Both the position numbers and the translations under genes were made by a program. This document shows positions 10,624-38,198 of a stretch of DNA of 64,000 nt, piece after piece (the stretch's first letter is position 1; each line of letters starts with the position of its first letter). Location: positions 1,399,095-1,463,094 of the forward strand of contig CP089923.1 of assembly GCA_041879365.1 (NCBI GenBank). The letters run 5' to 3'. The notes below the pieces were generated by a model. That model was not told where the DNA came from and did no database searches. It saw only the letters and a list, made by a program, of their open reading frames with translations. The DNA comes from Nodosilinea sp. LVE1205-7. GTDB lineage: Bacteria; Cyanobacteriota; Cyanobacteriia; Phormidesmidales; Phormidesmidaceae.

Positions 10624-13310
10624 GTGACCCTATCTCTCGATTCTTTGCTAACGCCAGAGATTCTCAAGCCAGCTCGCTATCTCGGTAACGAGTTGGGAGC
10701 GGTCCATAAGCCCTGGTCCTCAGCTCTGGTGCGCTGGGTTCTTACCTACCCGGAAATATACGAGGTAGGGGCTTCTAATTTAGGTCATATCATTCTCTAT
10801 AACATTCTTAATAGCCAGCCCCGCCAGCTGTGCGATCGCGCCTATCTACCGGCCCCTGACCTGGCCGCTAAGCTCAGACAGTCCCAAACCCCCCTATTTG
10901 CGGTTGAGTCTCGTCACCCCCTGGTAGCCTTCGACATTGTCGGTTTCAGTTTAAGTTACGAATTGGGTGCCACCAATATTCTAGAAATGCTTTCTCTGGC
11001 GGGCATTCCTCTAACCTGGCAAGAACGGGCTCAGTCTCAGTTAGAAGGGACCCCACCCTGGCCCCTAATTTTCGCCGGTGGCCAAACCGCCACCTCCAAT
11101 CCCGAGCCCTACGCTGATTTCTTCGACTTTATCGCCCTAGGCGATGGTGAGGAGCTACTGCCTGAAATCGGCCTGGTTGTGGAGGAAGGTAAGGCCGCTG
11201 GATTAAGTCGGGAAGCCCTACTGCTGGATCTGGCTCAAGTACCCGGAGTCTACGTACCCCAGTTTTATACTCTAAGGGATGACGGGTCAGTGCAACCCCA
11301 TCGATCAGATGTGCCTGAGCGAATCCTGCGCCGGGTAGCCACCCCGATGCCAGCCTATGCCATGGGTTTGGTTCCCTACGTGGAAACGGTCCACGATCGC
11401 CTGACAGTGGAAATCCGACGGGGATGCACCCGGGGCTGTCGCTTTTGCCAGCCTGGGATGCTTACCCGGCCAGCCCGGGATGTAGAACCAGAGGCGGTGG
11501 TAGAAGCCATTGAAACTGGCATGGGTAAAACTGGCTATAACGAGTTTTCCCTACTTTCCCTCAGTTGTTCCGACTACCTGGCTTTGCCAGCGGTGGGAGT
11601 AGAAATTAAAAATCGTTTGAAAGACGAAAATATTTCCCTATCCCTACCCAGTCAGCGGGTAGACCGCTTCGATGAAAATATTGCCCATATTGTCGGCGGT
11701 ACCCGTCTAACCGGGCTGACCTTTGCCCCTGAAGCCGGTACCCAGCGTCTGCGAGACATTATTAATAAGGGGCTAACCAACGAAGAATTACTGCGGGGCG
11801 TTAGTACAGCCTACCAACAGGGATGGGATCGGGTTAAGCTCTACTTTATGATTGGCCTGCCAGGAGAAACGGAAGAGGATGTCCTTGGTATTGGGGAAAC
11901 AGTTCGATGGCTGCGCCAGTCTTGCTATATCAAGGGACGGAAGCCGCTTTCCTTTAACATCACCATTTCCAACTTCACGCCCAAACCCCATACCCCTTTC
12001 CAATGGCATTCCGTTTCTACCCAAGCATTTCAACATAAGCAAACCCTGCTGCGGTCCGCCTTTAAAGGCGCGGGCTGGGCTAAGGTGAACTTTACCGATG
12101 TGCGGATTTCCGCCATGGAAGATTTCGTTGGCCGTGGCGATCGCCGGTTGGCGGTGGTGGTACGACGAGCTTGGGAATTGGGAGCTGGTATGGATGCCTG
12201 GTGGGAAAGCCTGGATACCGCCTTTCAAGCCTGGTCCCAGGCCATCGATGAGGCGGGCTTAAGCTGGAAATATCGTCAGGTAGACCAGGGTGAATGGCAG
12301 GGTAGCGCCGATCAATCCTGGCCCGATCTGGCGGCTCCCCTACCCTGGGATCACCTCGACACCGGAATTGATAAAACCTGGCTACAGCAAGATTTACAGC
12401 GAGCTCTGGAGGCGATTACCGTACCCGACTGTTCCTTTGAGGGTTGTTCCCACTGTGGGGTGTGTGGGCCTGACCTGGGCCACAACCAGGTCATCCCGCC
12501 GCCCCCGATTCCGGTTTTTATCGGTCACGGTCAGCCCGATCACACCAGGGTGCAGCGCCTCCGCCTCACCCTGGGCAAGTTGGGATCCATGGCCCTGGTT
12601 AGTCACCTCGATTTAATGCGCCTCTTCGATCGCGCCCTGCGTCGAGCCAGCCTACCCATTTCCTTTACCGGCGGTTTTCACCCCGGTCCCCGAGTATCGC
12701 CAGCTAATGCTCTGCCCTTGGGGGTAACCAGCACGGCAGAGGTAGTTGACTTTGAGCTAAAACAGCCTATCGATCCAGAGGCTTTCCGCCAGCGGCTGGC
12801 GGCCCAACTGCCCGATGAAATTCCCCTGTATGGGGTGGTAGAGGTGCCCCTAGATAGCCCCTCCGCCACTAAAGTGCTGGAACAGGCTGAGTACTATCTG
12901 CGGCTAGCTGCCGATAGTCACCCCCATGCCTGCCCCCCTGGCAGGATTGGGTTACCGGTTTGCTGGCCAGGGAGACCCTGACCTGGGTGAAGCAGACTAA
13001 ATCCGGTCGATCTCAAACCATTGACCTGCGCCCCCTGCTTTATGCCATGGACATTGTTACCGTGGCCCCCTGGCCTGTACCGGCCCTGGCCCCCGAGCTC
13101 CAGGAAGTGGTGATCCGATGCCTGGGCAGTTGTCGCAATGACGGCAACTTACTACGTCCTGATCAGATCGCCTGGATGCTGGAGCAGGTGGCTGGAGAGC
13201 CTCTAATCATTCGCCATCGCCACCGTTCCCGACTGGTTCTGAGGGAACCCTCCAGACAGCAGGTTAACTGTGCGGGGCCAGAGACTGCCAGCCAAACCCC
13301 GCCCCCGTAA
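10624..13310 (+). CDS. B12-binding-domain radical SAM protein fused to a DUF2344 (TIGR03960/TIGR03936-like) C-terminal domain; frameshift at a C6 run (12933-12938)
   Basis: Radical SAM core CTRGCRFCQ plus an upstream B12-binding-like region. The C-terminal DUF2344-like part continues in ORF 12960-13310 (…LARETLTWVKQTKSGRSQTIDLRPLLYAMD…); C6 to C7 restores ACPPWQDWVTGLLARE. Confidence 0.8.
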
Positions 13311-24610: not shown

Positions 24611-24779
24611 TCAGTGTGTTCTAGACTAAGGGGTAATCCTTTTAGGACAAGGTGCGATCGCTGGTGCTGTCGGGGGCGATCGCTACACCAGCGATGCAGA
24701 GCCATCAGGTTTTGCTCTCCAACCTTTGAGCCGAGGGGGGTTGGGGGAGTCTTGACCGGCCTTGGGGTGAGGGATAGGG

Positions 24780-25600
24780 AGCCTGGTCACTTACTATCGA
24801 TGGTTGGTGATTTATCAGGGGTAGGATGGGCAAAGGGCCTGAGCCCGTGCCCATCACCTGAGAGTGATCAGGCCAGGTTAAACCCTGACCTGGAGCTGGG
24901 CAGATCCTGGCTGCGATCGCGGGTGGCGGGGGTGCGATCGCAGTTGGTCGCTGGCTAGGGGGTATTGTTGGGCCTTGATGCTTAAGTTGGGGGTGGAAGG
25001 GTGGTAAGGTCTAATCTATTACGGGCAAGGGCTCCTGATCACTGATTACTGACCCCTGATTACTGTTTTTCTTACCGGGGGAATGGCGATTTCCCCCGGA
25101 CCCCCTCGCCCAGGGCGTGCCGCCGCCCTGGACCCGACGGAAGGGGTTAAAGGGTGGGCCGCCGATCGCGCTTCGCTTTGCTCTCAGCCTGTAGACCCCG
25201 GTTGCTTGAGGAGAAGCTTCCTATGGGTGGGAATCTGGGTGGTGCGGGCTCCTGATCACTGACTACTGATTCCTGACCACTCACTTCGCTTTGCTCTCAG
25301 CCTGTAGACCTGGGGAGGGGGCTACAGGCGCAGGGCGGATAGAGAAGTCTATCTAAGGGTGAGGGAGTTGGTGGCCAGGGCTTCTGACTACTGACCACTG
25401 ATTCCTGACCACTCACTTCATCGCGCTTCGTATTGCTCTCAGCTTGTAGACCTCTGCTGCTTAAGCAGGAATTTTGTCAGGGTGAGATAGGGGGTAGAGG
25501 GGACTCCTGATGACTGACCGCTGAAACGCTTGCGAATCGCTTGCTGACTGAGGGAGAGGGCTGCAAAACCGGATGCACCCAGACGTTCTCGCCAAAGCGA
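24780..25600. repeat. Left block of a composite repeat region: element A (~105 bp), double-hairpin element B, then ~130-150 bp satellite-like units containing STRR-like heptamer tracts
   Basis: 24812-24916 is repeated verbatim at 28421-28525. 25076-25200 (CCGGGGGAATGGCGATTTCCCCCGG…CCCAGGGCG…CGCCCTGG) is repeated at 28705-28830. The units CTCAGCCTGTAGACC–TGGGGAGGGGGCTACAGG–…–CTGACTACTGACCACTGATTCCTGACCACTCACTTC recur at 27660-27840 and 28830-29060. Confidence 0.6.
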
Positions 25601-25759
25601 TAGTTGCATTATGTCACTGACAGTGCCTAGCCTGTAGCAGTCTGGCAACAGTTACATCCAGGCCAGTGCGGCCGTCCTGGTCAAGTTTTTTAACTGCGCT
25701 GCCAAACCCATGGGTTTTCGAGATAGAGTACCCACCAGTGTCTAGCGCTTTTCCAGAAC

Positions 25760-27419
25760 ATGTTCAAACGCCATTCCTTCTGCCGTTTAGCAATTTTATC
25801 ACTGTCTGGAGTTCTGTTGGGTTCAGCCCTGGGGGCTCCAGGCTTAAGGGCAGAGGTAACCGTACTAGACAAAGCAGTCAGTCCAGCACTGCAGTCCCGG
25901 GTAAGTCCGATGGTGTCACCGGTACCCTTGCCGAGGCAGGCCCGTCGCTTTTCTCCTCCGAGTGGCGAAGAGAAGGCTGCCCAGTGGTTTGAAGCCCATC
26001 GCCAGCGTCCCACCTTGCTGCGGGCCTTCGTTCAGCGCATGCCAAAGGGCGGCGATATCCACAGCCATCTAAGTGGAGCAGTCTATGCCGAAGATTACCT
26101 GCGGTGGGCGGCGGCAGATGGATACTGTGTCGCCCCCCAGGGACCTGCCTTGGTGAAACCCAGCGCTTGCGGGCAGGATAGCAGTTACTTCCCAGCCTCT
26201 GAACTCTTCAACCGCACCGCTACCTACAATGCTCTGATTAACCTATGGTCTACCCGCAACCTACCCTTTGCCGGGCAGTCAGGCCATGATCGAATTTTTC
26301 GAGGCCTTCGCTGGTTTTTCTGACATCTCCTCAGAGTTGGCTCGTCAGGACGATATGGTAGCTTCCGTGGCTAATCGAGCCGCCAAGCAACACATTGCCT
26401 ACCTGGAACTGATGATGACCGTGAAGGGAAGTGAGGTGCGTCAGCTGGGCCGGACCGTAGGCTGGCAGGATAACTTTACCCAGATGCAGCGGCAGTTGAT
26501 GCAGGGCGGCCTGATGAATTTAGTGGCTGTCGGCGCTCAGGAGATGACGAAGCTTGAGGAACAGGTGGCTCAGAACCTGGGTTGTGGTACGGCGGCAGCT
26601 CAGCCAGGCTGTGGGGTGACGGTGCGGTATTTGCAGCAAACAACCCGTACCAAGGCTCCAGAGGAAGTGTTTGCCCAGTTTGTCTACGCCTTTGAGTTAG
26701 CCAAGGCCAGTGCCCAGGTGGTGGGTATCAATCTGGTGGCCCCAGAGGATCATCCGATTGCCCTGCGGGACTACACCCTGCAGATGGAAATGCTGGAGTT
26801 TCTGAAGAAGCAGTCTCCTGAGGTGAAGGTTTCCCTCCATGCCGGTGAGCTGGCGTTGGGTCTGGTGCCACCGGAGGAAATGACCTTTCACATCCGTCAG
26901 GCCGTAGAGCTAGCTCAGGCCAGCCGTATCGGCCATGGAGTCGCCATTCTCCACGAGCAGAACCCCTTTGAACTGATGGCGGAGATGGCTAAACGGGGGG
27001 TGTTGGTGGAAATTTGTTTGACCAGTAATGAGGTGATTCTTAATGTTGAGAAGGAGGAACATCCCTTTTTGGAGTACCAAGCCGCCGGTGTACCCCTGAC
27101 CCTGGCTTCCGATGATGAGGGCATATCCCGGATTGACCTGAGTAATGAGTACTTGCTTGCCGCCCTGCGCTACGACCTGCGCTACCCAGAGCTGAAAAAG
27201 CTGGTCCGCAACAGTTTGGAGCATAGCTTTCTGGAGGGGGATAGTCTGTGGCAATCGCCCCAGTTCGCTGCCGTGACAGCGGTCTGTGCCAAGGATGAGC
27301 CTGGGACTCAGGCCCTTTCTCCTGGCTGTGCTAGCTTTCTGGCCCAGAGCGATCGGGCCCGGGTCCAGTGGCAGTTAGAAAGGGACTTTGCTGAGTTTGA
27401 GAACCTCTCCTGGTTCTAA
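25760..27419 (+). CDS. Adenosine deaminase family protein with an N-terminal signal peptide (secreted/periplasmic ADA-like); frameshift at a T5 run (26295-26299)
   Basis: Signal peptide LAILSLSGVLLGSALGAPGLRA. The metal-binding motif GGDIHSHLSGAV, SLHAGE, a later GHG and the C-terminal half match the adenosine/AMP deaminase fold. T5 to T6 gives the continuous read HDRIFFEAFAGF. Confidence 0.8.
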
Positions 27420-27483
27420 GGATGGCTGCTTAGTGGTGCGGAAAAGTCCTGAAAGTACTGATATTCGGGAGAGTGATTAGAAT

Positions 27484-27628
27484 TTTGTGTAAACCCTGGT
27501 TTTGGCAACTAAAAATCAATGGTTTCAGCCTGATCTGGCAATGTTTTCTGAACACTCCCGCTGGTTCCCATTTTGCTATCCTGTTTCCAGGACGTTTCAA
27601 TTTCTAACTAAATCCCCGTTTACACAAA
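27484..27628. mobile_element. MITE family B copy 1 (TIR TTTTGTGTAAAC)
   Basis: 145 bp bounded by TTTTGTGTAAAC / GTTTACACAAAA. A near-identical copy at 36386-36676 carries a nested insertion. Confidence 0.5.
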
Positions 27629-27644
27629 AATCCGAACAGTCCCC

Positions 27645-27840
27645 TTCTGATTACTGACCACTGATTCCTGACCACTCACTTCATCGCGCCTCTCAGCTTG
27701 TAGACCTGGGGAGGGGGCTACAGGCACAGGGCGCAGGACGCAAGGCGGATAGAGAAGTCTATCTAAGGGTGAGGGAGTTGGTGGCCAGGGCTTCTGACTA
27801 CTGACCACTGATAACTGACCACTCACTTCGCTGATTACGG
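27645..27840. repeat. One satellite-like unit with heptamer (STRR-like) tracts, same family as in the flanking blocks
   Basis: …CTGATTACTGACCACTGATTCCTGACCACTCACTTC…CTCAGCTTGTAGACCTGGGGAGGGGGCTACAGG…GGATAGAGAAGTCTATCTAAGGGTGAGGGAGTTGGTGGCCAGGG…. Confidence 0.55.
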
Positions 27841-27845
27841 TTTTT

Positions 27846-27860
27846 AGGGCAATTTGCCCT
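27846..27860. promoter_or_regulatory. 15 bp perfect palindrome AGGGCAATTTGCCCT at the head of the tandem-repeat locus
   Basis: AGGGCAA-T-TTGCCCT. A related AGGGCACCTTTGCCCT occurs at 63538-63553. Confidence 0.3.
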
Positions 27861-27878
27861 AAAAACCTTAAGGTTTCA

Positions 27879-28070
27879 TCTATGCATATGTCGATCACCA
27901 TTAAGCACATTCTAAACACACGCGTGCAACTGTTGTTGTAGTCTATGTGCATAAAGAGCACCATTGAGCGCATCCTAAACACAGGGTGTGATCGTTAAAA
28001 ATGCGCCAAAAACCACTGTTTTGATCTATGTGTATGGCGATCACCATTGAGTGCATGCTAAACACAGGCC
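27879..28070. repeat. Three tandem copies of a ~64-82 bp repeat (TCTATG…GATCACCATT(A/G)AG(C/T)(A/G)CAT(T/C/G)CTAAACACA…)
   Basis: Copies start at 27879, 27943 and 28025. The 3' end of each copy (…CACAGG(G/C)(T/C)TGTGATCG…) seeds the following 21 bp array. Confidence 0.6.
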
Positions 28071-28343
28071 TGTGATCGATGTTTGCACGCCTGTGATCGT
28101 TATACACACCCGTGTGATCGATGTGCGCAGCGGTGTGATCGTTATACACAGGCGTGTGATCGATATGCGCACGGGTGTGATCGTTAAGCACAGCCGTGTG
28201 ATCGATATGCGCAGCGGTGTGATCGGTATGTACAGCCGTGTGATCGATGGTTGCAGGGGTGTGATCGTTAAACACACCCCTGTGATCGCTGTTGGCGGAG
28301 GTGAAATCGGTGTGTACAGCCCTGCGATCGCGGTTGGTCACCG
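28071..28343. repeat. Array of 13 perfectly phased 21 bp direct repeats, consensus TGTGATCG(A/T)T(A/G)T(G/A)C(G/A)CA(G/C)(C/G)(C/G)G
   Basis: Unit starts at 28071 + 21n (n = 0-12). Units alternate between two sub-types (…CGATGTGCGCAGCGG / …CGTTATACACAGGCG), giving a 42 bp super-period. Four adjacent units (28092-28175) read TGTGATCGTTATACACA or TGTGATCGATGTGCGCA, resembling CRP-family TGTGA-N6-TCACA sites. Confidence 0.85.
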
Positions 28344-28379
28344 TCTGAGGAGTGTTGTTCTGCCTCAATGCTGAGCTTG

Positions 28380-29110
28380 GGGGTAAAAGCTTAGATACAG
28401 AGGTCTCCTAATCACAGCGGGGTAGGATGGGCAAAGGGCCTGAGCCCGTGCCCATCACCTGAGAGTGATCAGGCCAGGTTAAACCCTGACCTGGAGCTGG
28501 GCAGATCCTGGCTGCGATCGCTATGGGCCGGGGGGACATGGATGAAGCCATGGGGGAGACTACTCTTCCCGGCCCCCCATAGGGTGTTGTCTGGCTTTGA
28601 GCTTGAAGGGTGGATGCTTGAGGAGCAGCTTCCTGTGGGTGAAAATCTGCGTGTTAAGAGCTCCTGATCGCTGATTACTGACTACTGGATTACTATTTCT
28701 TTTGCCGGGGGAATGGCGATTTCCCCCGGACCCCCTCGCCCAGGGCGTTCCGCCGCCCTGGACCCGACGGAAGGGGTTAAAGGGTGGGTGGCCGATTGCG
28801 CTTCGCATTGGTCTCAGCTTGTAGGCCTGGGGGAGGGGGCTACAGGCGCAGGGCGCAGGGCGGATAGAGAAGTCTATCTAAGGGTGAGGGAGTTGGTGGC
28901 CAGGGCTTCTGACTACTGACGACTGATAACTGACTGCTGATTCCTGACCACTCACTTCATCGCCCTTCGCTTTGATCTCAGCCTGTAGACCTGGGGGAGG
29001 GGGCTACAGGCGCAGGGCGCAAGGCGGATAGAGAAGTCTATCTAACGGTGAGGGGGTCGGTGGCCAGGGATTCACCCTATAGAACCCGCGACTAGGATCG
29101 AGCTAAGGGC
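28380..29110. repeat. Right block of the composite repeat region (element A, spacer, element B, two satellite units); direct repeat of 24780-25450
   Basis: 28421-28525 is identical to 24812-24916. 28705-28830 matches 25076-25200. 28830-29060 holds two units of the CTCAGC(C/T)TGTAGACC…GGCTACAGG…CACTCACTTC family. Confidence 0.6.
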
Positions 29111-29480
29111 AATGGTTGGGGGGCTAGTTATATTGGGCCGGACACCAGTTGATCAGATGCCCAGTTCTTACTCAAGAATGACGCATCCATGAGCAAACCC
29201 GTACCATTGCTAAAGAAATCTTGAGTTACAGAGCAGCCAGGGCGCGGGGGTATTTATACTGAAACTTTCCACCTAAGATCCCCTATTCGGCATTTAGGCT
29301 GAATTTTTTCCACCTAAGATCCCTCCAGGGGTGTTTAGGCGGACAGATTTCCACCTAAGATTCCCTATAGGGGTATTAGACGGAAAATTTCCCTCTATTT
29401 AGTAGTTGGACTGAATTGGCAACAGTGATTTTGAGAAAACTGCTGGATTTAAACCAAAGCCAAGGGAGAACGTTTAGCTT

Positions 29481-30891
29481 ATGTCTTTTGGAAAGTTTGT
29501 CTTTATCCTCCTATTTTTCACGATTTTCGATCTTCCTACCAAAGCATTTGCCGCAGAACAGCCCGTCGCGAATCTTTCACGCATTTAACCAAAAATACAG
29601 TGAGGTTGACGACTTTGTTTGTACGCTTGCTGAGCAAGGGTATTCCCACATACAAATCTCACCCGCACAACAATCGAATCCTAACAACGTCAATTCTAAT
29701 CCAAATGCCCCTGTGAATGTATGGGCAGGGCGTTATCAGCCTGTTAGCTATAGGGTGATTGACGGATTAGGATCTGAGCAAGACTTAAAGACTCTAACTG
29801 ATAAAGCCCATAGCTGTAAGATTAAGGTGATTGCCGACGTGGTTTTTAATCACATGGCGAGCATGAATCAATATAGCTCTCTAACTAACTTCCCTGACTT
29901 TCCCGATCCAAATGCTAGAGATGTCAGGAAAAATGGGTCAACCTATTTTCACAAGCAATGTGACATCAACTACAATGATGGTAACAGATCCACGGAAGTA
30001 AATTGTTGGTTGGGAGGTGCTCTTCCCGATCTCAATCAAAACAATTCAACTGTTAAGCAGGTTCAGAAAGCGCATTTGCAGAAGCTGCTGGATCTGGGGA
30101 TTGATGGCTTTCGGTTTGATGCCGCTAAACATATGCCGCCAGAAGCTATTCAAGAGTACATTAGCTACATTAATCAAGCGAGTAATAATCAGGCATGGAA
30201 TTATCTTGAGGTGATTGAAGATAATGATACGAGTGCGACCAACTATAATTTCATTGCTGCTGTAGAAGACTTTGTTCTCTATAGCTCAATGAAAAATGCA
30301 TTTACCTTTGGTGGGGATCTGCGATCATTACGAGTCCCCGTTGCCATTAACGATTCACGTAGCGTAGTATTTGGGCGAAACCATGACCAGATTAAACGTT
30401 TGAATGATGACGCTCTAAATGCCTACGATGATGAAACAGATTCTTATCTGGCGACGGCTTATGTGTTGGCTAGGCAGCAGGGCACTCCATTAATATTTGG
30501 ACCAGACAATTTAGTTCCTTATATTCCTGCTGGAGTCAAGTTTCGTCGGATCATGCATGAGAGAGGGAAGGAAGGTCGTAACGTAAAAGATAATGTTTTG
30601 CAGGTACCTGATAGTAAAACCGTCTTAATGATGGAACGGGGTAGCGAAGGATTCTTTGTTGTTAATAAGGGATTGGATAAATTTAATGTTCAGGTTATGG
30701 ACTTGACGCTCACTAATTTAGAGGGGTGTTACAGAGAACTACGAAATAACTTTACCGTCGCAATTGAGAGGAGGGCTAACAATAAGAAGTTTGTCACTCG
30801 GTGGGGAACGTGGGATCGCGGTGGGATGGAAGTTCAAGGTCGAGATGCAATATACTTCATTCGTGAACCATTTAATCAATGTGCGAAATAA
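29481..30891 (+). CDS. Secreted alpha-amylase family (GH13) protein; signal peptide is in a different frame from the catalytic domain
   Basis: GH13 conserved regions DVVFNHM and GFRFDAAKHM are present. A signal peptide MSFGKFVFILLFFTIFDLPTKAFAAEQ (29481-) reads in the +1 frame relative to the main ORF (29416-30891), so an indel near 29560 is implied. Confidence 0.7.
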
Positions 30892-31300
30892 ATAGCTGTG
30901 TTATGGCGGCTCCTGGACTAATGAGGTGTGGCCAGCCCCTTACTAGTAAGGATTTCGCGCTGGAGGATGTACCTCACTCGGACAAGAACTGCTATATAAC
31001 CAGCCGCCCAACACTGCGCTGCAACGGACGAAATCGAGTCTTGATGAGAATGCCAAAATTACTTGCTGCCGTTGAGCTTCACCGTTAGACCGCTGAATTG
31101 TCGGTTGGAGCAGTACTTGAAGCTTATCTGTTTGTTAAACTGTTTCAGTGTTCGATTGCGGAGTGTGCGAAAGTTCTTGTTTGAAACATAAAGTCTAACT
31201 ACTAAACGTTATCAATTAAGCACGTCTTAAATTCTTAAGTCTCCCAAGCACTTTAGCTAGCAATCAAAGTTAATGTTTAACGAACCTAGAAAAACTTTAG

Positions 31301-32695
31301 ATGCTTATGTATAAAGCCCTTCCAACAATCATATTTTTAAGTTCTGTTACTGCTGTGTTGTCTCTTATTGTATGGTTGTTGGGCACATGGCTTAAATTTA
31401 ATTATTTAACATCCTTACTAATCTTCACTGGCTTATTTTTGCTCATCCTATACTCTGTAGGCTCAATCAGAATAATTAATCAAGGAAACGAAGGTTTAAT
31501 AGAGCGGTTAGGGCGTTATCATCGCAAACTTGTACCGGGTTTGAACTTTATTATTCCATTTATGGACACGATTGTTTTAGAAGAAAGCACTCGTGAGAGA
31601 GTTTTTGATATAACTCCACATCTGACTATCACAAAAGATGGGGTTCCTCTAGAAATAGGTGTTGTTGTTTTTTGGCGAATCCTACAACTTGAAAGGACTT
31701 ATTATAGCATTGAGGATATTGAGGAGGGCTTAAGAAATATTATAGTTAATTCTCTTCGATTTAAAGTTGGCAGATTTGAATTGGAAAAAGTATTTTCTTT
31801 GAGAGATGACATAAGTTATAGTCTTTTAGCAATCTTAGATGATGCCACTGCTACTTGGGGAATTAAAATTACACGTATCGAAGTAGGAGATATTCTTCTC
31901 GCCAAAGCAGTGTTAGGTGAAAATTCCGACACCATTGAATTCAGCTTCCACAATGGGATCGATTGGGAAGCTTTTAGATATTCATTCAACTTGACGATTG
32001 AAAATGAAGGAGTGGAACTCAGCATTCAAGGTATAGAAGATAGAGGTGATGGAGTCCTTGTAGTTAAAGTTAGGGTTCCTTCTAACGTAAATAAAGCACA
32101 AATTTACAAAGACTTTACTACAAATTATGAAACAGCTTTTAAGGAATTGGAAGCTAGATACAGTGCTGAATTAAAAGCTAAGGAAGGTGAGATTGCAATC
32201 TACCGTGAACAAAGTTCAAGTATGTGGACGGTAATAAATTCATTGGCAAACCGACCTATAAATGTACAAGCAATTGCAAAAGCTATGAACGAAAGTACGG
32301 ATCAGAGTCAAAATATCAACATTGGTGGCAATGTCACTGGATCAACTATCAATTTGGGGGAAATCAGTGGTAGTGTTTCAAATACAGTTGCTCAATTGCC
32401 AAGTTCTCCAGATCCCAATCAACCTGGTGTAAAGGAACTACTGAGTCAGCTCCAAGAGATTATTGAGCAAGAGAAAGAACTATCATCTGAAGACAAAGCA
32501 GATCTGTTGGAGCAAGTTAAAGCTTTGGCAGAAGTGCAACAAGCTCCTGAGCAAAACCAGAAAGAAGGATTGGCACGGAAAGCCAAAAAGATGTTTGAAG
32601 CGACTTTGAAGAGTTTACCTGAAACTGCCAAAATTGTAGATGCTAGTGCTAAATTACTGCCTATGATCTTAAAGTTGCTAGGATTGCCAGTATAA
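31301..32695 (+). CDS. SPFH/band-7 (stomatin/prohibitin-like) membrane protein with a ~150 aa C-terminal extension
   Basis: Two N-terminal TM helices, then an SPFH core (…IINQGNEGLIERLGRYHRKLVPGLNFIIPFMDTIVLEESTRERVFDITPH…). The extension (NINIGGNVTGSTINLGEISGSVSN…KADLLEQVKALAEVQQ…KKMFEATLKSLPETAKIVDASAKLLPMILKLLGL) resembles N-terminal adaptor domains of cyanobacterial STAND/CHAT-type proteins. Confidence 0.75.
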   Translation: MLMYKALPTIIFLSSVTAVLSLIVWLLGTWLKFNYLTSLLIFTGLFLLILYSVGSIRIINQGNEGLIERLGRYHRKLVPGLNFIIPFMDTIVLEESTRERVFDITPHLTITKDGVPLEIGVVVFWRILQLERTYYSIEDIEEGLRNIIVNSLRFKVGRFELEKVFSLRDDISYSLLAILDDATATWGIKITRIEVGDILLAKAVLGENSDTIEFSFHNGIDWEAFRYSFNLTIENEGVELSIQGIEDRGDGVLVVKVRVPSNVNKAQIYKDFTTNYETAFKELEARYSAELKAKEGEIAIYREQSSSMWTVINSLANRPINVQAIAKAMNESTDQSQNINIGGNVTGSTINLGEISGSVSNTVAQLPSSPDPNQPGVKELLSQLQEIIEQEKELSSEDKADLLEQVKALAEVQQAPEQNQKEGLARKAKKMFEATLKSLPETAKIVDASAKLLPMILKLLGLPV

Positions 32696-32882
32696 GAAGT
32701 TTTTGAAGTTGTCATAGTCAATTAGGTTAAGTGCGCGGTCTAACAATTCAAATGCAGCGGACAGACTGAAATGCTTTCTGCTTCGTTTCGAGTCCTATGC
32801 TGCCGCTGATTTGAGCCGTTAGCAATCCACGGCGCTTCACACCTTCAGGGTGAAAGTAACTAGCTCTCGCCAATAAGTATAT

Positions 32883-34433
32883 ATGCTCATCATGTATAAC
32901 TCAGACAATTCAAGAGATAGAGCACTAGTAAGTACAATCTTCTCTGGAAAAGTGAAGTCTATGGTTAATCAATTAAGAGAGATGAACTATCAACACAGGG
33001 AGCTATACAGCCGTATTCAGGCATTTTCTTTAGATCAACCAAATACTCAGTTATTGTTTCACAAGCGATTGGCTAGGGATAATGGTTGGTCGATAGGCTA
33101 TGCTCAGAGAGTGATTGAGGAATATAAAAAGTTTGTATTTCTAGCTGTTGCAGCAGGTCATCCTGTCACGCCATCCGATCAAGTTGATCAAGTTTGGCAT
33201 TTGCATTTGACTTATACACGATCGTACTGGCAAGAGTTCTGCCCCAAAATTTTGCAGACCACATTACATCATGATCCAACTCGTGGAGGTTCATCCGAGC
33301 AATTAAAATTTGACAACTGGTATAGCAAAACACTAGAGAGTTACCAACAGTTTTTTGGACAGATTCCTCCAATTGACATTTGGCCCAAACCTAAAGACCG
33401 ATTTGGGCGCGATTTACATTTTATCCGGATCAACACTCAAGAAAATTGGGTTTTGACAAAACCCAATTTCAAAATCTCCTTCAAACCACAACTGCAACAA
33501 GGAGTAACCTTTTCCTTTTTATTTGTGCTTGCGCTTGTTGTAACTAGCTGTCAAGTAATCTCCCAAATTCCTAACCCAATCAATTTTACAGGTTCGGAAT
33601 TTTTAACGTTCTATATTTCGATAGCAGTGATAGGAATTGCTTTGGCTACCTGGCTACGTTTTTCTCTTCGCTTGCCTAACGGGATCACAAATAAACACCC
33701 TGATTTAAATGCTTACGAGATAGCTTTCTTAGCTGGCGGCAATAATCGCATGATTATGACTGCGATCACCAGTTTAGTAAAACAAGGCTATGTAGAGGTA
33801 GCAAAAGAAAAACTACCATCTTTTATTGGTAGCATAACGCAAAGAAAACTGGCTTTGAGAACAAGTATTGATAATATTACTGACCCTGTAGAAAAGGCAG
33901 TTGCACAAAATATTTTCACAACTGATGGAGGAATTGAACAGGTCTTGCAGAAATCCACAGTAGTGGAGGATAGTATTCGCTCCCGCCTACAACAATTGAG
34001 CTTGTTTCTAAGTAATGATCAGGCAGTCAAAGCACAACTTTATCCATCGTTGATTGTACTTATTCTCTTAGGGCTAGGCTTATGTAAAGTATTTGTCGGA
34101 ATTTCTCGCGATAAGCCAGTTGGTTTTCTTTTGATGTGTATGTGGGTGCTTCTAGTTTTGGGATCAAGGTTTTTTGTAAAACCATATCGTAGCCGTTATG
34201 GAGATCGCATTTTTAATGATTTAACAAATCGCTCACAAGACTTAAAAACAGCCAATAGCAGCGATTCTAAGCTTCCACTTGCGGTTGCGTTGTTTGGAGC
34301 AACAGTTCTGACAGCCGATAGTGCTTTAGCAGATTTGCATCAAATGTTGGTTTCTACAGCTGGTGGTGGCGGCGATGGCGGCGATGGTGGCGGTTGCGGT
34401 GGTGGCGGTTGTGGTGGATGCGGTGGTGGTTGA
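32883..34433 (+). CDS. Fusion of a DUF1399 (glycine-rich-domain protein, GRDP-like) N-terminal domain with a TIGR04222-like membrane domain ending in a Gly/Cys tail
   Basis: The N-terminus (LFHKRLARDNGWSIGYAQRVIEEYKKFVFLAVAAGHPVTPSDQVDQVWHLHLTYTRSYW) matches the DUF1399 core. Several TM helices follow, and the gene ends AGGGGDGGDGGGCGGGGCGGCGGG*. Confidence 0.55.
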   Translation: MLIMYNSDNSRDRALVSTIFSGKVKSMVNQLREMNYQHRELYSRIQAFSLDQPNTQLLFHKRLARDNGWSIGYAQRVIEEYKKFVFLAVAAGHPVTPSDQVDQVWHLHLTYTRSYWQEFCPKILQTTLHHDPTRGGSSEQLKFDNWYSKTLESYQQFFGQIPPIDIWPKPKDRFGRDLHFIRINTQENWVLTKPNFKISFKPQLQQGVTFSFLFVLALVVTSCQVISQIPNPINFTGSEFLTFYISIAVIGIALATWLRFSLRLPNGITNKHPDLNAYEIAFLAGGNNRMIMTAITSLVKQGYVEVAKEKLPSFIGSITQRKLALRTSIDNITDPVEKAVAQNIFTTDGGIEQVLQKSTVVEDSIRSRLQQLSLFLSNDQAVKAQLYPSLIVLILLGLGLCKVFVGISRDKPVGFLLMCMWVLLVLGSRFFVKPYRSRYGDRIFNDLTNRSQDLKTANSSDSKLPLAVALFGATVLTADSALADLHQMLVSTAGGGGDGGDGGGCGGGGCGGCGGG

Positions 34434-34906
34434 TTGAAAACCGTCTAACATTCGCTTGGAGCGGACTGACGAAAATCCTTAGTTTATTGTAGAGATTGTT
34501 AGCAGCCTCTCAAGTGGAGCGTTACCCACGAAGGTCCGCCTAAAGTCATGGGGAGACAGGCCCGCGATCGCCCACCGAACGGGGGTATTGACTGCCTTAA
34601 CTGGGATATTGGCCGAGGAGCAGCGATCGCCCCACCAATACAGCTCCTGGGGCTAGGGCTATTGCCAAGACTTAGCCCCACGGCACCGGAGATCGCAGCA
34701 GAACCCCCCGCCACCCATGAGTCACCCCACACAGCGGATACCTTCGGCCCCCTCAGACCTGGTCACCTTAAACTCACCTGAAGGCCGCACAGCCCTGCTG
34801 GATCACTGGTTGACGCTGTGGCTAGAGCGCCTGAACAACACGCCTTCTCTACCCAGCCCTTTATCGATGCTGCCCAGCAACGCCTCTGGGAACTAGCAGA
34901 GTAAAG

Positions 34907-36189
34907 TGTACCCCGTTGTCTAGACAGTTAGGGTAGGAATTTAAAGTAGAGTCGCCATTTAGTTCATTTTCTTTCTCTACGTCTCTTTTTTACATCACTA
35001 TCCTCCTGCTTACTGAAGTAGACACTGGCTGGCGGCCTATAGTTCAGTGACTGGTGTAGCCGCTCCTGGTTATAAAACCGAAAATAACGCTCCAGATTCT
35101 CAATGGCACTTGAAACACTGTCGTAGTCTTTGAGGTAGACCTCTTCGTACTTGACGGTACGCCACAGCCGTTCCACGAAAATGTTATCAAAAGCCCGGCC
35201 CTTGCCGTCTTGAGAAATTTGGATCGCTCGCCCCTCTAACGCCCCTGTAAAGGCCAGGCTGGTAAATTGACTGCCCTGATCTGAGTTAAAGATCGTAGGC
35301 TGACTGACCTGCAGCGCCTCCTCCAGGGCCACCAAACAAAAATGCACATCCATGGTATTCGATAGCTGCCAGGACAGTACATAACGGCTGTACCAGTCCA
35401 TCACCGCTACCAAATACACAAACCCATTCGCCAGCCGAATATAGGTAATATCCGTGCTCCACACCAGATCGGGGCGGTCAATACACAGCCCCCTCAGCAA
35501 GTAGGGATACCGGCGAGCGTTGTCCCCAGCTATCGTTGTCCGGGGCTTCGGATAGATCGCCTGAATCCCCATCTGACGCATGATCCGCGCCACCCGCTTA
35601 TGATTGACCGCCTCGCCCTGTTGTCTCAACCAGGCGGTCATTCGGCGCACCCCGTAAAACGGCGTCGCCGTGTATTGTTCGTCTATTCGTTCCATCAGAT
35701 GTAACTCGTAAGGGTCAATCGCCACTGGTTCGTAGTACCAGCTAGACCGCGCCAGCTCTAGTAACTCACATTGTCGACGGATACTCAGCTGAGGATGCTC
35801 TGGCTCCACCAGCCGTCGTTTATTCGCCAGCGGTAAGGCCAGATTTTTTTTCAACCAGTCCACTTCTACCTTCAGTTGACCGATTTGTTGATAAAGTTGG
35901 GCGGTTAGCTCTTCCTGGTCTTTACGGCCCTGGGCTCGCCGTGACGAAAAAATGCCAGGAAGCTCATCGAGCACCTGCTTCTTCCATTGGTTGATCTGGC
36001 TGGCATGGACGCCATACTCACTCGATAGTTCGTTCACAGTTTTTAGCCCCTTGATGGCCTCTAGAGCCACCTTAGCCTTGAAGTCCGCACCATGTCGCTT
36101 GCGCTGCATTTCCCTGTTGATCTCCGTATAGCTACTGAATTGCTGGGCAGCGACTCTATCTTATTTCCCTGTACAGTTTCCGGGGTACA
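34907..36189 (-). mobile_element. IS3-family insertion sequence (1283 bp) with terminal inverted repeats TGTACCCCG…
   Basis: The left end TGTACCCCGTTG… matches the reverse complement of the right end …CCGGGGTACA, and both ends carry AGAGTCGC. Encodes an OrfAB-type transposase. Confidence 0.8.
34964..36109 (-). CDS. IS3-family transposase (HTH OrfA part fused in-frame to the DDE integrase-core OrfB part)
   Basis: 381 aa: HTH region (…ALEAIKGLKTVNELSSEYGVHASQINQWKK…), leucine-zipper-like segment, then an rve/DDE core (…WSTDITYIRL…NSDQGSQFTS…). An A8 run (35855-35862) sits exactly where IS3 elements carry their -1 frameshift window. Confidence 0.85.
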   Translation of the reverse strand: MQRKRHGADFKAKVALEAIKGLKTVNELSSEYGVHASQINQWKKQVLDELPGIFSSRRAQGRKDQEELTAQLYQQIGQLKVEVDWLKKNLALPLANKRRLVEPEHPQLSIRRQCELLELARSSWYYEPVAIDPYELHLMERIDEQYTATPFYGVRRMTAWLRQQGEAVNHKRVARIMRQMGIQAIYPKPRTTIAGDNARRYPYLLRGLCIDRPDLVWSTDITYIRLANGFVYLVAVMDWYSRYVLSWQLSNTMDVHFCLVALEEALQVSQPTIFNSDQGSQFTSLAFTGALEGRAIQISQDGKGRAFDNIFVERLWRTVKYEEVYLKDYDSVSSAIENLERYFRFYNQERLHQSLNYRPPASVYFSKQEDSDVKKRRRERK

Positions 36190-36385
36190 TCATAGAGGAA
36201 GACGCTCTGGAATTGGGTGCAGCGGACTACGATTACGTCCGATCGTGGATATCAGAGTCGCTAGAGAGGCGGCACCTGGCCCAAACCTACAACGACGACA
36301 AAAAACGCGTCCAACGGAAGGCGGTGAGCCACCGATGACGCGAGTTGTCTCTTATTTCAAGACCTTCGGTGGAGAGTGATCAGAA

Positions 36386-36676
36386 TTTTGTGTAAACCCT
36401 GGTTTTGGCAACCAGAAATCAATGATTTCAGCCTGATCTGGCAATGTTTTCTGAACGGGTGCATCCCACTTTTGTAGCCCTCACCCTAAATCCCTCTCCC
36501 AAGGCGGGAGAGGAATTTAGAATCCGGCTCCCCTTCTCCCAAAAAGGGAGAAGGGGCTGGGGGATGAGGGCAAACTTGCAAAACTGGGATGCACTCTTCT
36601 GAACACTCCCGCTGTTTCCCATTTTGCTATCCTGTTTCCAGGACGTTTCAATTTCTGACCAAATCCCCGTTTACCT
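36386..36676. mobile_element. MITE family B copy 2, carrying a nested 140 bp insertion and truncated at its right TIR by MITE A copy 2
   Basis: Collinear with 27484-27628 except for the inserted block 36457-36596. The right end stops at GTTTAC, where MITE A (GGTTGACTGACAAAAC) begins. Confidence 0.5.
36457..36596. mobile_element. MITE family D nested inside MITE B, flanked by an 8 bp target-site duplication TTCTGAAC
   Basis: TTCTGAAC occurs once in the uninterrupted copy 1 (…GTTTTCTGAACACTCCCG…) and twice here (36449-36456 and 36597-36604), flanking an element with TIRs GGGTGCATCCCA…TGGGATGCACTC. Confidence 0.6.
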
Positions 36677-37581: not shown

Positions 37582-37819
37582 AACTACCATGCCCAGAGCC
37601 GCCATTATTAGCCCGATCAGTCCTACACCTTTGGCGACGAACTATAGCAGATTTCATTCGGGCGAAGTGCGATGTGAACACCCCCTGCCCCCTTGCCAAG
37701 GCTACGGTGTACAGCGTCAAACCCCTACAGTTAGGCGCTGGGGGGTAGGATTGAGCAATGGGGTGTCTCACTCTATGGAAAACCGCTATATACCTGAGCC
37801 CTTTTCAAATAACCCCTAA

Positions 37820-37891
37820 AGCCGATGGCGGGATTTGAACCCGCGACCGCTCGATTACGAATCGAGTGCTCTACCACTGAGCCACATCGGC
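37820..37891 (-). tRNA. tRNA-Thr (anticodon CGT)
   Basis: Reverse complement GCCGATGTGGCTCAGTGGTAGAGCACTCGATTCGTAATCGAGCGGTCGCGGGTTCAAATCCCGCCATCGGCT; anticodon loop TTCGTAA. Confidence 0.85.
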
Positions 37892-37898
37892 AAACCCG

Positions 37899-38037
37899 CT
37901 TAGAGGTTGTTTGAAGAGTCAAAAAGAATATCAGACTATACCTAGAGAGTCGGATAATCATCGCAAAATTCCGTATTTTAGCGACCCCTTGGCGGCGAAC
38001 TATACCTGGGACAACCCCCTTCAAACAACCTCTTAAG
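37899..38037. mobile_element. MITE family C copy 1 (TIR CTTAGAGGTTGTTTGAAG), 8 bp from the 5' end of tRNA-Thr
   Basis: 139 bp; CTTAGAGGTTGTTTGAAG…CTTCAAACAACCTCTTAAG are 18/19 bp near-perfect terminal inverted repeats. Related copies at 57640-57776 and 58386-58523. Confidence 0.6.
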
Positions 38038-38198
38038 ATAGTATAACAACAGCGCCGGACCAGGACATCAGGCAATTCCTGAAGCCAGCTTGATAGCCTT
38101 AGCCCTGGGTAGGTCAGCATGGTTACCCAATATTCCCTTTAGCAATTAGCCTGGCCTCAGGGCTCTAGCTAAGTTTTATATCCTGTAGAGCCAATTCT

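Follow-up and report, generated by a model that had tools for sequence, protein, structure and literature searches.

The block at 24.8-29.1 kb of the window (the whole 64 kb stretch of the Nodosilinea sp. LVE1205-7 chromosome that was analysed) carries two direct-repeat modules, 24818-25453 and 28419-29073, which are colinear at 73.2% identity over 663 columns (blastn, 24818-25384 against 28419-29073, E 3.7e-113). In a MAFFT alignment both have the same order of parts: element A, a spacer, heptamers with element B, and satellite units. Behind A, the spacers of the two modules are largely non-homologous, and left and right also differ in the core of the satellite unit that comes first after B. 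Within the window, A, B and the satellites are confined to this block. All features are given on the forward (+) strand, the MITE and the palindrome being unstranded. No integrase, transposase or att-like repeat is found in the bracket formed by the modules or at its edges.

The left side begins 3' of selO with a leader (24611-24782) that is common to the nearest relative, L002 (84-97% identity to L002 10422-10677). It is followed by the remnant of a 21 bp tandem array (24783-24817) that is intact in relatives: the remnant has the sequence that closes an L002 array (10804-11069; ~300 bp, 21 bp units) situated directly 5' of the REP head, and in L137 the array-remnant junction sequence also lies directly 5' of the REP head. 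Element A (left 24818-24920, right 28419-28521) consists of a GTAG-tagged REP hairpin (24821-24855 and 28422-28456) and a 65 nt tail with a second hairpin and a terminal HIP1 site; both folds are predictions, with z = -2.1 on one strand and -2.9 on the other. The two copies of A are identical (103/103) and those at two other loci of the chromosome, L189 and L190, differ at 2 positions each; as a sequence pattern, the identity within the window fits local gene conversion. The REP head of A is present in 103 copies on 96 related metagenome stretches, mostly as inverted doublets. Both heads in the window are singlets, and singlet REPs are considered immobile (PMC3116915). RAYT genes directly flanked by the REP head are found in L134 and L151/L156, with 44-46% identity to the E. 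coli RAYT (E 1e-40). No RAYT of Nodosilinea sp. LVE1205-7 is among the best 120 RAYT homologues, so that mobilisation of REPs in this genome is judged from its relatives.

Spacer X follows A on the left (24921-25028) and precedes it on the right (28323-28418), with 75% identity between 24933-24999 and 28323-28389; the right type is 97% identical to L133 and L163 and is kept in L189 and L190. On the right, A is instead followed by a palindromic spacer R, a core II unit and a heptamer tract (28522-28694), all conserved in L189 and L190, and 28415-28688 is found again with other flanks in L104, L169, L115 and L121 (89-91% identity). The B core, with two GC-rich hairpins, and the junction motif GCGCTTCGCTTTGCTCTCAGCCTGTAGACC lie at 25029-25197 on the left, where this range includes the heptamer tract, and at 28695-28827 on the right. 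The tracts are of CTGAYYA, about 4 units each. Left and right B (25058-25197 and 28688-28827) are 91% identical over 140 nt, the left being 93% identical to the copy L189_8768 and 92% to that of L190, and the right 95% to both; thus both are nearer to copies 0.2-2.6 Mb distant than to each other. The B hairpins are invariant in 9 copies, which vary too little for a covariation signal, and none is seen (covariation term +1.36); Rfam gives sub-threshold matches only. The suggested role of the units as transcribed structured RNAs would be hypothetical. A 68 aa ORF over B (28713-28919) has 23 homologues, 13 of them named from the Nodosilinea sp. LVE1205-7 MAG, and B-derived ORFs have at least 13 separate locus tags in this genome (LVS60_01550 to LVS60_16760). 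After B, the left module has three satellite units (core II, core I and core III) and then a degenerate linker (25198-25581), each unit closing with heptamers and the junction in self-similarity comparison. The right module has two core I units (28795-29073), mutually 90% identical, and a right extension of the composite (29074-29415) with 3.6 copies of a 41 bp repeat (29247-29392; TRF). This extension reaches up to where the amylase gene is called to start, which is also the onset of a low-GC island in the GC profile.

Between the modules lies a 1.85 kb segment (25582-27428) with an adenosine deaminase gene (25760-27419, PF00962), 178 nt of the gene's own upstream DNA and 9 nt downstream. DNA homology to L178-L183 (91-92%) covers exactly 25582-27428 and is nil outside it. 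In relatives, the deaminase homologues (91-93% identity) stand in an Alpha-E / deaminase / HI0933-like context, and ATGGCTG at 27422-27428 is the start of the HI0933-like gene, the deaminase's 3' neighbour. The segment is found at the present site in this lineage only. It is apparently a relocated piece of chromosome, a guest inside one repeat copy that has retained a scrap of its former neighbour, with the direction of the move based on three related taxa and the 7 nt remnant. Whether the whole block is an insertion had been raised as a question; an insertion holds for the deaminase segment, to which homology with the relatives is limited, and not for the block. The single deaminase gene is at the place described, but not as one open frame: one additional A at 26293 breaks the frame, leaving 25760-26323 and 26268-27419. 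In the JGI version of the contig this A is missing and the gene is intact.

The segment is followed by a MITE with 27 nt imperfect inverted ends (27468-27644, I1), of which there is a second, longer copy at 36371-36674 and further copies in L189 (8161-8251 and 18260-18358). A core I satellite unit (27644-27829), which aligns with L190 8928-9065, then opens the right-hand composite, with 85% identity to 25249-25419 and 92% to 28812-28934. Next come a palindrome of 18+18 nt, TTACGGTTTTTAGGGCAA/TTGCCCTAAAAACCTTAA (27835-27871, I2, 94% complementary), kept in L189, L190 and L193, and three 73-83 bp repeats that lead into a 21/42 bp tandem array (27874-28352, the array itself at 28017-28352). In the array, some 16 direct repeats of 21 bp adjoin one another and show a 42 bp super-period; its units TGTGATCGATATGCGCAGCGG and TGTGATCGTTATACACAGGCG carry one GATC each, and its length differs between genome copies in steps of whole units. 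ORFs called across it are taken as artefacts, since 4/6 frames are open over 27874-28352; no Pfam family matches them above threshold. The preliminary description was accurate on the colinear modules with identical A and on the heptamer tracts, 21 bp array, palindrome and MITE. Its account of the bracket, with deaminase, MITE and array, needs the addition of the satellite unit at 27644-27829, the third of its kind.

Elsewhere on the chromosome, three loci (L189, L190 and L193) each have a ~1.25 kb copy of the composite, in the shared order satellite, palindrome, 73-83 bp repeats, 21/42 bp array, REP/A, hairpin spacer, heptamers, B and satellite. Window 27690-28966 is 87.9% identical to L190 (1342 columns), 28059-28909 is 90.0% identical to L189 (854 columns), and 28959-29415 is 96.1% identical to L189 10083-10539 (457 columns); L189 and L190 are 88.1% identical to each other (1248 columns). 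In the composite alignment (A2), the flanking parts are conserved far better than the array, and identity is lost chiefly through whole-unit indels inside the array. L193 has the palindrome, array, a full REP doublet, X, B and core I, and is close to the left module of the window, with 96.2% identity from X to B (24910-25197 against L193 9828-10115: 96%). L189 has REP (8624) first, followed by junction, core II, heptamers and B, and immediately afterwards the palindrome, array and A (9712); the array thus stands between arms of REP-B and A-B type that enclose no gene, which places the modules with the repeat. The sample is of four other loci of the 3.79 Mb genome, three of them reached via ORFs derived from B, and it therefore gives biased estimates of copy number, typical architecture and flank statistics.

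At the orthologous selO locus of L002, REP, B and satellites are present in another number and order, with 690 bp extra immediately 3' of the selO stop. Unit number and order also differ in L163, L130 and L192, and structural plasticity, as had been anticipated, is borne out. L192, an ENA contig that is 96.8% identical to 25284-25584, joins a right-type core II and B to this left-type tail. It has an Illumina adapter at its start and a B that is 99% of L190 type; chimeric assembly of short reads, or simply a strain whose units are ordered differently, may explain it. L001, from the 3.79 Mb contig that bears the LVS60 locus tags, is 99.98% identical to the window, and the two released contig versions agree except for four single-base differences. 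The window and L001 are probably from the same reads, and their agreement therefore says little on structural stability.

The block probably consists of two adjacent copies, in the same orientation, of a multi-copy non-coding mosaic repeat, one complete and one degenerate, and the modules first noticed are the REP-to-satellite arms of these copies. A full copy runs satellite, palindrome, 73-83 bp repeats, 21/42 bp array, X and REP hairpin (in the form of A, or of a complete inverted REP doublet), and then a B part of hairpin spacer, CTGAYYA heptamers, B and satellite unit(s), sometimes with a 340 nt extension with 41 bp repeats. As the modules are arms of a dispersed repeat and the deaminase lies inside one copy, there is no gene cassette with ends of its own.

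The preliminary description had instead suggested that the modules could be the ends of a cassette or remnant integrated element, between which deaminase and array would be excised, amplified or inverted. Direct repeats with a 103 nt perfect core, the lineage-specific position of the deaminase, and the L192 junction, which is what a circle or tandem duplication would yield, all agree with this. However, the L192 junction has the two other explanations given above, the L189 arms enclose the array without cargo, the composite recurs at three other loci and every part is dispersed in the genome (B-derived ORFs at 13 or more locus tags), which the preliminary description itself had named as evidence that would count against it, homology in the relatives is to the deaminase alone, mobility genes and att sites are lacking within and beside the bracket, and A-to-A recombinant flank combinations are absent from 14 A copies (2 in the window and 12 at other loci). 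The cassette is accordingly very improbable. An error of long-read metagenome assembly that joined repeats wrongly, for which several probable frameshift errors in the MAG might speak, is more improbable still, as the same sub-structures occur in independent short-read assemblies from other samples (L002, L130, L163, L133, L191, L192, and L104 to L169) and the released contig versions agree apart from the four bases.

A local segmental duplication, in which ~640 bp 3' of selO were copied ~3.6 kb away and diverged, with A later gene-converted, would account for the proximity, order and orientation of the modules, and for As that are identical here and differ in L189 and L190. It is nevertheless unlikely: each B is nearer to remote copies, the left module resembles L193 from X to B and the right is colinear with L189 and L190 over 1.25 kb, the post-A spacers are unrelated and X changes sides, and the left module is already at the same locus in L002. 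The composite may also be a selected functional module: a protein-binding platform, in which 21 bp units with GATC beside hairpins would act like an iteron, centromere or nucleoid-site array, a long structured non-coding RNA locus, or a landing pad that marks island boundaries. The better conservation of the array flanks in four copies, the unchanged B hairpins, the 21 bp-period arrays of unrelated sequence that L002 and L171 have beside this REP head, and the L002-type array junction kept in the window and L137 are in keeping with selection. The same holds for the neighbouring genes of the full copies: in 4/4, core genes lie towards the palindrome, and genes of accessory, mobile or defence type lie towards B. 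Four loci are a small and biased sample. Recent spread or gene conversion explains the high identity equally, array unit number is freely variable, rep, par and regulator genes are not adjacent, and neither an Rfam family at threshold nor covariation is seen; a selected function is therefore doubtful.

For a mosaic repeat in two copies, a RAYT-type tyrosine transposase would seed the REP heads, as in REP/REPIN elements, slippage and unequal recombination would turn over satellites and arrays, and ectopic recombination or gene conversion would spread or homogenise whole composites. The deaminase piece and the MITE would have inserted among the satellites of one copy. Recombination between satellite units is a possible route, because core I units flank the insertion on either side (25249-25419 and 27644-27829). 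Between the 103 nt identical copies of A, rare RecA-dependent deletion or duplication of the intervening 3.6 kb could occur, and any such recombination would be a by-product of the repeat, with no dedicated excision system.

Iteron arrays of plasmid and phage origins, and tandem-repeat centromeres such as sopC of F, resemble the array in its contiguous 21 bp direct repeats and two-unit super-period. They differ in that the array has at least 4 chromosomal copies, varies in unit number and has no rep/par neighbour, and no plasmid in PLSDB matches the module. Mazel and colleagues reportedly described in 1990 the STRR1 (CCCCAGT), STRR2 (TTGGTCA) and STRR3 (CAACAGT) heptamers of filamentous cyanobacteria. 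A likeness to STRR and LTRR families had been suggested. The former stands, as short intergenic tandem-heptamer tracts are joined to hairpin repeats in a filamentous cyanobacterium, and CTGACCA, reverse-complemented and read in another register, agrees with STRR2 at 6/7 positions. However, CTGAYYA is variable and its short tracts are always linkers between hairpin units, never free-standing arrays. The likeness to LTRR does not stand, as the 21 bp units follow one another without spacers.

RAYTs are IS200/IS605-type tyrosine transposases that mobilise REP/REPIN elements. The A head, a ~35 nt imperfect palindrome with a GTAG start, an 8 bp stem and a large loop, is like these elements in being dispersed, in forming inverted doublets in relatives and L193, and in adjoining RAYT genes (L134 and L151). 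It differs in that the window heads are fused to the tail inside a larger composite. Cyanobacterial GTAG REP families are on record in Di Nocera et al. 2013 (PMC3733652); the A head is likened to them by tag and fold, and no assignment to GTAG-12, -15 or -16 is claimed. BIMEs (bacterial interspersed mosaic elements) are said to have been described in enterobacteria by Gilson and colleagues in 1991. The composite is like them in that REP hairpins and short conserved motifs are arranged by a fixed grammar, at many intergenic sites, with variable internal unit number. At 1.25-1.7 kb, it exceeds the tens to few hundred bp of BIMEs, and it has a long palindrome, heptamer tracts, further hairpin families and the 340 bp array of 21/42 bp period in addition; binding of IHF or gyrase to it would be hypothetical. 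The family of this mosaic repeat appears to be undescribed, and the kind of element is an ordinary one, a REP/BIME-like mosaic with STRR-like heptamers.

A comparison of the block against itself and against the entire window bears out the two direct-repeat modules of the preliminary description. Positions 24818-25384 align with 28419-29073 at 73.2% identity over 663 columns (E 3.7e-113), and in pairwise alignment the order of parts is common to both sides, as had been proposed: element A, a spacer, heptamers with the GC-rich hairpin core B, and satellite units. The reported sameness of A is exact, with 103/103 positions identical between 24818-24920 and 28419-28521, and B is 91% identical between left and right over 140 nt. 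The spacers 3' of A are largely unrelated between the modules, the satellite unit that immediately follows B differs in its core between left and right, and X, a 67 nt spacer (repeat family D10), follows A on the left and precedes it on the right. The contents described for the bracket are likewise found: a 21/42 bp array (28017-28352), an 18+18 nt palindrome (27835-27871), a MITE (27468-27644), heptamer tracts, and an adenosine deaminase gene as the only Pfam-supported gene between the modules. A third satellite unit (27644-27829) also lies inside the bracket, and the ORFs of the modules match no protein family. Outside the block at 24.8-29.1 kb, the 64 kb window has no copy of A, B or the satellites, and the GC content of block and deaminase (52-60%) equals or slightly exceeds that of the rest of the window.

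An ORF across B has homologues at no fewer than 13 locus tags of LVE1205-7. Composite copies, mosaics of 1.25-1.7 kb, were compared between the window and three of these B-ORF loci, L189, L190 and L193. L190 matches window 27690-28966 at 87.9% identity over 1342 columns; in L189, the matching parts are 27763-28330 and 28059-28909 (87-90%) and 28959-29415 (96.1%). L193 carries the palindrome, 73-83 bp repeats, the array, a full REP doublet, X, heptamers, B and a core I satellite unit, and its stretch from X to B is 96.2% identical to the left module of the window. The order of parts is constant in all four loci, so that the composite is BIME-like, combining a REP with other motifs at several loci. 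In a three-way alignment, conservation is far higher on the flanks of the array than within it, where the changes are mainly of whole 21/42 bp units. In L189, an arm consisting of REP, junction, core II, heptamers and B directly adjoins the palindrome and array, which are followed by A, spacer, B and satellite. This is the window's left-plus-right arrangement minus the intervening DNA, with 1088 nt from REP head to REP head, compared with 3601 nt in the window. An origin of the paired modules by local duplication is argued against by the B identity matrix, since each window copy is 92-95% identical to distant copies, but 91% identical to the other window copy. The best-supported reading of the block is a REP/BIME-like mosaic repeat family with STRR-like heptamers.

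The head of A is a hairpin, GTAGGATGGGCA-loop-TGCCCATC, at 24821-24855 and 28422-28456, an imperfect palindrome within the 20-40 nt size range of REPs, and belongs to the minimum-free-energy fold of either strand. Scanning public metagenome contigs for this hairpin gave 103 copies in 96 stretches, with many per genome-sized contig set. The matched GGATGGGCA is preceded by GTA, giving a GTAG end, in both copies of the window and in nearly all of the 103 listed. This tetranucleotide at one end defines the REP super-family of Di Nocera et al., for which cyanobacterial families have been reported (PMC3733652). In most metagenome copies the inverted partner GATGGGCACGCTTTGCTTTGCCCATCCTAC follows after a short spacer; such an inverted doublet is the REPIN arrangement of Bertels and Rainey, a singlet REP being viewed as a REPIN that has decayed (PMC3116915). 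Relatives as a rule have doublets, and so does L193 of LVE1205-7 itself, whereas the two REP heads of the window are both singlets, each fused to a 65 nt tail, with no REPIN doublet in the window. All six REP heads in the ~125 kb sampled of LVE1205-7 lie inside a mosaic copy, and the 103 nt A form occurs with at least four further flank combinations in contigs of relatives. A literature search on the REP sequence or the STRR units returned nothing usable.

RAYT genes were searched for by tblastn, with sequences from the supplement of PMC3733652 as queries. They are found in L134 and L151/L156, contigs of related cyanobacteria, with 44-46% identity to the E. coli RAYT (E 1e-40). The RAYT of L134 (1100-1624) is accompanied by REPs of the A-head type at 907, 970, 1015 and 1656, and that of L151 (1850-2371) has REP doublets on both sides. 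L134 900-1670 and L151 1682-3160 (equal to L156) are complete REPtrons, with a 174 aa RAYT and 1-3 flanking REP doublets of the A-head family. RAYTs are annotated in other Nodosilinea genomes; none of the top 120 RAYT homologues belongs to LVE1205-7, and the window contains no RAYT.

STRR-type tandem heptamers in non-coding DNA were detected by TRF (period 7, 3.3-4.4 copies) at 25035, 25384, 27794, 28671 and 28909. The unit, CTGAYYA, agrees at 6/7 positions at most with STRR2, and equals none of STRR1, STRR2 or STRR3. The resemblance to LTRR that had also been suggested does not hold, as the 21 bp units follow one another directly, without spacers (spacing 21, 21, 21 ...), whereas LTRRs are 37 bp repeats interrupted by unique spacers similar in length, nowadays regarded as CRISPR arrays. 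In iteron or partition sites, direct repeats of 17-22 bp or ~43 bp adjoin a cognate rep or par gene; the array is present in the four composite copies, and no rep or par gene lies beside any of them. The unit of the 21 bp array has no stop codon, which leaves four of the six frames open, and no match to a Pfam family exceeds the threshold; a coding reading was rejected on these grounds, and the array is read as non-coding. The characters of a MITE are found in 27468-27644 only, with 27 nt imperfect inverted ends that are 78% complementary. This element is present in at least four copies (window 27468-27644 and 36371-36674, L189 8161-8251 and 18260-18358), the one at 36.4 kb having ~140 extra bases in the middle.

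Upstream of the amylase gene, the stretch 29074-29415 contains a 41 bp repeat in 3.6 copies (TTTCCACCTAAGATCCC...TTTAGGCGGA) at 29247-29392, and a stretch 96% identical to it precedes a TIR-GUN4 gene in L189 (10083-10539); it could serve as a promoter, as binding sites or as the end of an element. A Tn7-like or iteron-origin reading of the 41 bp and 21 bp repeats was rejected, with no fitting transposition or replication genes nearby. Another dispersed repeat (37642-38039), next to tRNA-Thr (37820-37891), is 76-83% identical to stretches in L099, L133 and L137, in each of which the repeat stretch is 1-4 kb from a REP head.

The selO product is also encoded on a 3.79 Mb JGI version of the window contig, of which 21.7 kb (L001) were compared; these are 99.98% identical to the window, with four single-base differences. 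One of the four is an additional A at window 26293, by which the adenosine deaminase gene is broken into the frames 25760-26323 and 26268-27419, and the gene is intact in L001 (PF00962). Further split genes are present in the MAG (an ABC/C39 exporter at ~19.4-22.4 kb, a Peripla_BP_6 gene, and homoserine dehydrogenase in L189), which suggests that the splits are homopolymer errors of long-read assembly rather than pseudogenes.

The nearest deaminase homologues (88-93%) have an Alpha-E gene on one side and a gene for an HI0933-like flavoprotein on the other, with dnaA a few kb away, and remoter homologues have a CMD / deaminase / Metallophos context. DNA homology to the deaminase region of relatives covers window 25582-27428 only (91-92%). 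In relatives, the HI0933-like gene begins, from its start codon on, with the final 7 bases of this segment, ATGGCTG, and thus the position of the deaminase in the window is derived. A satellite tract holds the deaminase segment and the MITE, with core I units on either side of them (25249-25419 and 27644-27829). On these sequence comparisons, the deaminase appears to be a guest in a pre-existing mosaic repeat.

Synteny around selO was tested against 185,579 species genomes, giving 80 selO loci. One of these shares DNA with the block: L002, from a Leptolyngbya sp. MAG (selO 96%). In none of the 80 is there a deaminase, amylase or Band_7 gene near selO, so selO-amylase synteny is not comparable. 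In L002, selO is followed on its 3' side by a 690 bp insert and then by a different array of 21 bp units, the last unit of which survives at window 24783-24817. Beyond this come a REP head and then B and satellite units, differing in number and order from those of the window, and the contig ends within the repeats. In the metagenome contigs L163 and L130, the arrangement is array, X, REP doublet, core I, palindrome, array, a permuted or tandem order. Thus, the repeat nest at the selO locus is old and quick to turn over. The L002 array (10804-11069) and an array in L171 (628-786), both of 21 bp period and with unit sequences unrelated to that of the window's array, lie close to an A-type REP head, and L137 has the same junction sequence as the L002 array end at ~1490-1530.

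The block had been interpreted as a recombination-prone cassette or the remnant of an integrated element. The STRR-like resemblance and the insertion of one gene remain from this interpretation; the rest of it is not supported. Neither the bracket nor its borders contain a recombinase, a transposase or an att-like repeat, and the nearest transposase (34964-36109) is outside the block. The A-B modules have no terminal inverted repeats, and the right module has no match among PLSDB plasmids. Insertion of the block as a whole unit is likewise not seen, as relatives share 25582-27428 only, in another context, and the selO locus of L002 already has the left module. A tRNA-derived att at the junction of composite and island was also rejected, since the match to tRNA-Thr is no longer than 11 nt (E 0.78), with the same sequence found in L189 without a tRNA.

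Recombination between the A copies would give TTATCAGG-A-CTATGGGCC as the deletion junction and CACAGCGG-A-GGGTGGCGG as the circle or duplication junction; no recombinants of the A flanks are found among 14 A copies examined (the two of the window included). By the substrate requirements of RecA, an identity of 103 nt would be long enough for occasional homologous recombination between the A copies. In one contig (L192, ENA ERZ27299101, 580 nt), a right-type 'core II, B' is joined to a left-type tail up to 25584. Its unit order, unlike that of the left module, is core II, B, core I and core III, after which the sequence continues up to the position corresponding to window 25584. L192 may be a chimeric assembly, a strain variant or a recombinant junction, the first two being possible because it is, like L191, a short contig opening with Illumina adapter sequence, and because its B is of the L190 type.

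Only tRNAs exceed the Rfam gathering threshold in the window, and at E<=1 the only additions are sub-threshold matches to the NiCo riboswitch on the tail of A (24854-24953 and 28455-28541, 20.6 and 23 bits vs a threshold of 37). The two are not independent because the A copies are identical; they are taken as chance, and no metal-transport gene lies downstream. Fold z-scores are modest (-0.8 to -2.9). Covariation for A and B amounts to 1 compensatory pair in 38, with an unfavourable covariation term and copies too alike for the analysis, which is neutral as to an RNA structure, and a promoter and terminator scan gives no useful excess over shuffled expectation.

In all four complete copies of the composite (L189, L190, L193 and window 27644-29415), the genes beyond the palindrome are core or housekeeping genes, whereas the B/satellite side adjoins genes of an accessory or horizontally acquired, mobile or defence kind. 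The latter are a low-GC amylase island in the window and, in the other copies, TIR-GUN4 with rve and IS66 transposases, a tyrosine recombinase with DDE_Tnp_1, and a type I restriction-modification system with Fic. The low-GC island (29416-34500, 37-44% GC vs ~52-55% elsewhere) starts exactly where the composite ends and carries genes for an alpha-amylase, a Band_7 protein and a 516 aa protein without a Pfam family; an IS3-type transposase gene (HTH_21 + rve, minus strand, 34964-36109) follows it. The core-side/accessory-side pattern is unexplained by the mosaic-repeat account and is the most interesting lead, though four loci are too few, and too biased a sample, for conclusions to be drawn from them. 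The composite, with its palindrome, 73-83 bp repeats, GATC-bearing 21/42 bp array, REP and GC-rich hairpins and, in some copies, 41 bp repeats, could be a maintained functional unit instead of debris, such as a protein-binding platform or a recombination landing pad edging variable regions, although this seems decidedly improbable; if true, the deaminase capture would be one more insertion into a hotspot. Should the border association be genome-wide, the composites would be useful markers of variable regions, and might mechanistically help to create them.

Under the mosaic-repeat reading, the family would be spread and reshaped by transposition of small hairpin elements and by ectopic recombination, with slippage and unequal crossing-over as further means of reshaping. 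In a filamentous cyanobacterium, direct repeats on both sides of a gene can mean that the gene was dropped into an older mosaic repeat, for which the gene-free L189 paralogue provides an internal empty-site control. The analysis documents a REP-containing mosaic family in Nodosilinea, its fast unit turnover between sister taxa, and the relocation of a single gene with breakpoints resolved to a few bases. The Nodosilinea mosaic is much larger than the BIMEs of enterobacteria, and the family is a variant, new in itself, of a known kind of repeat.
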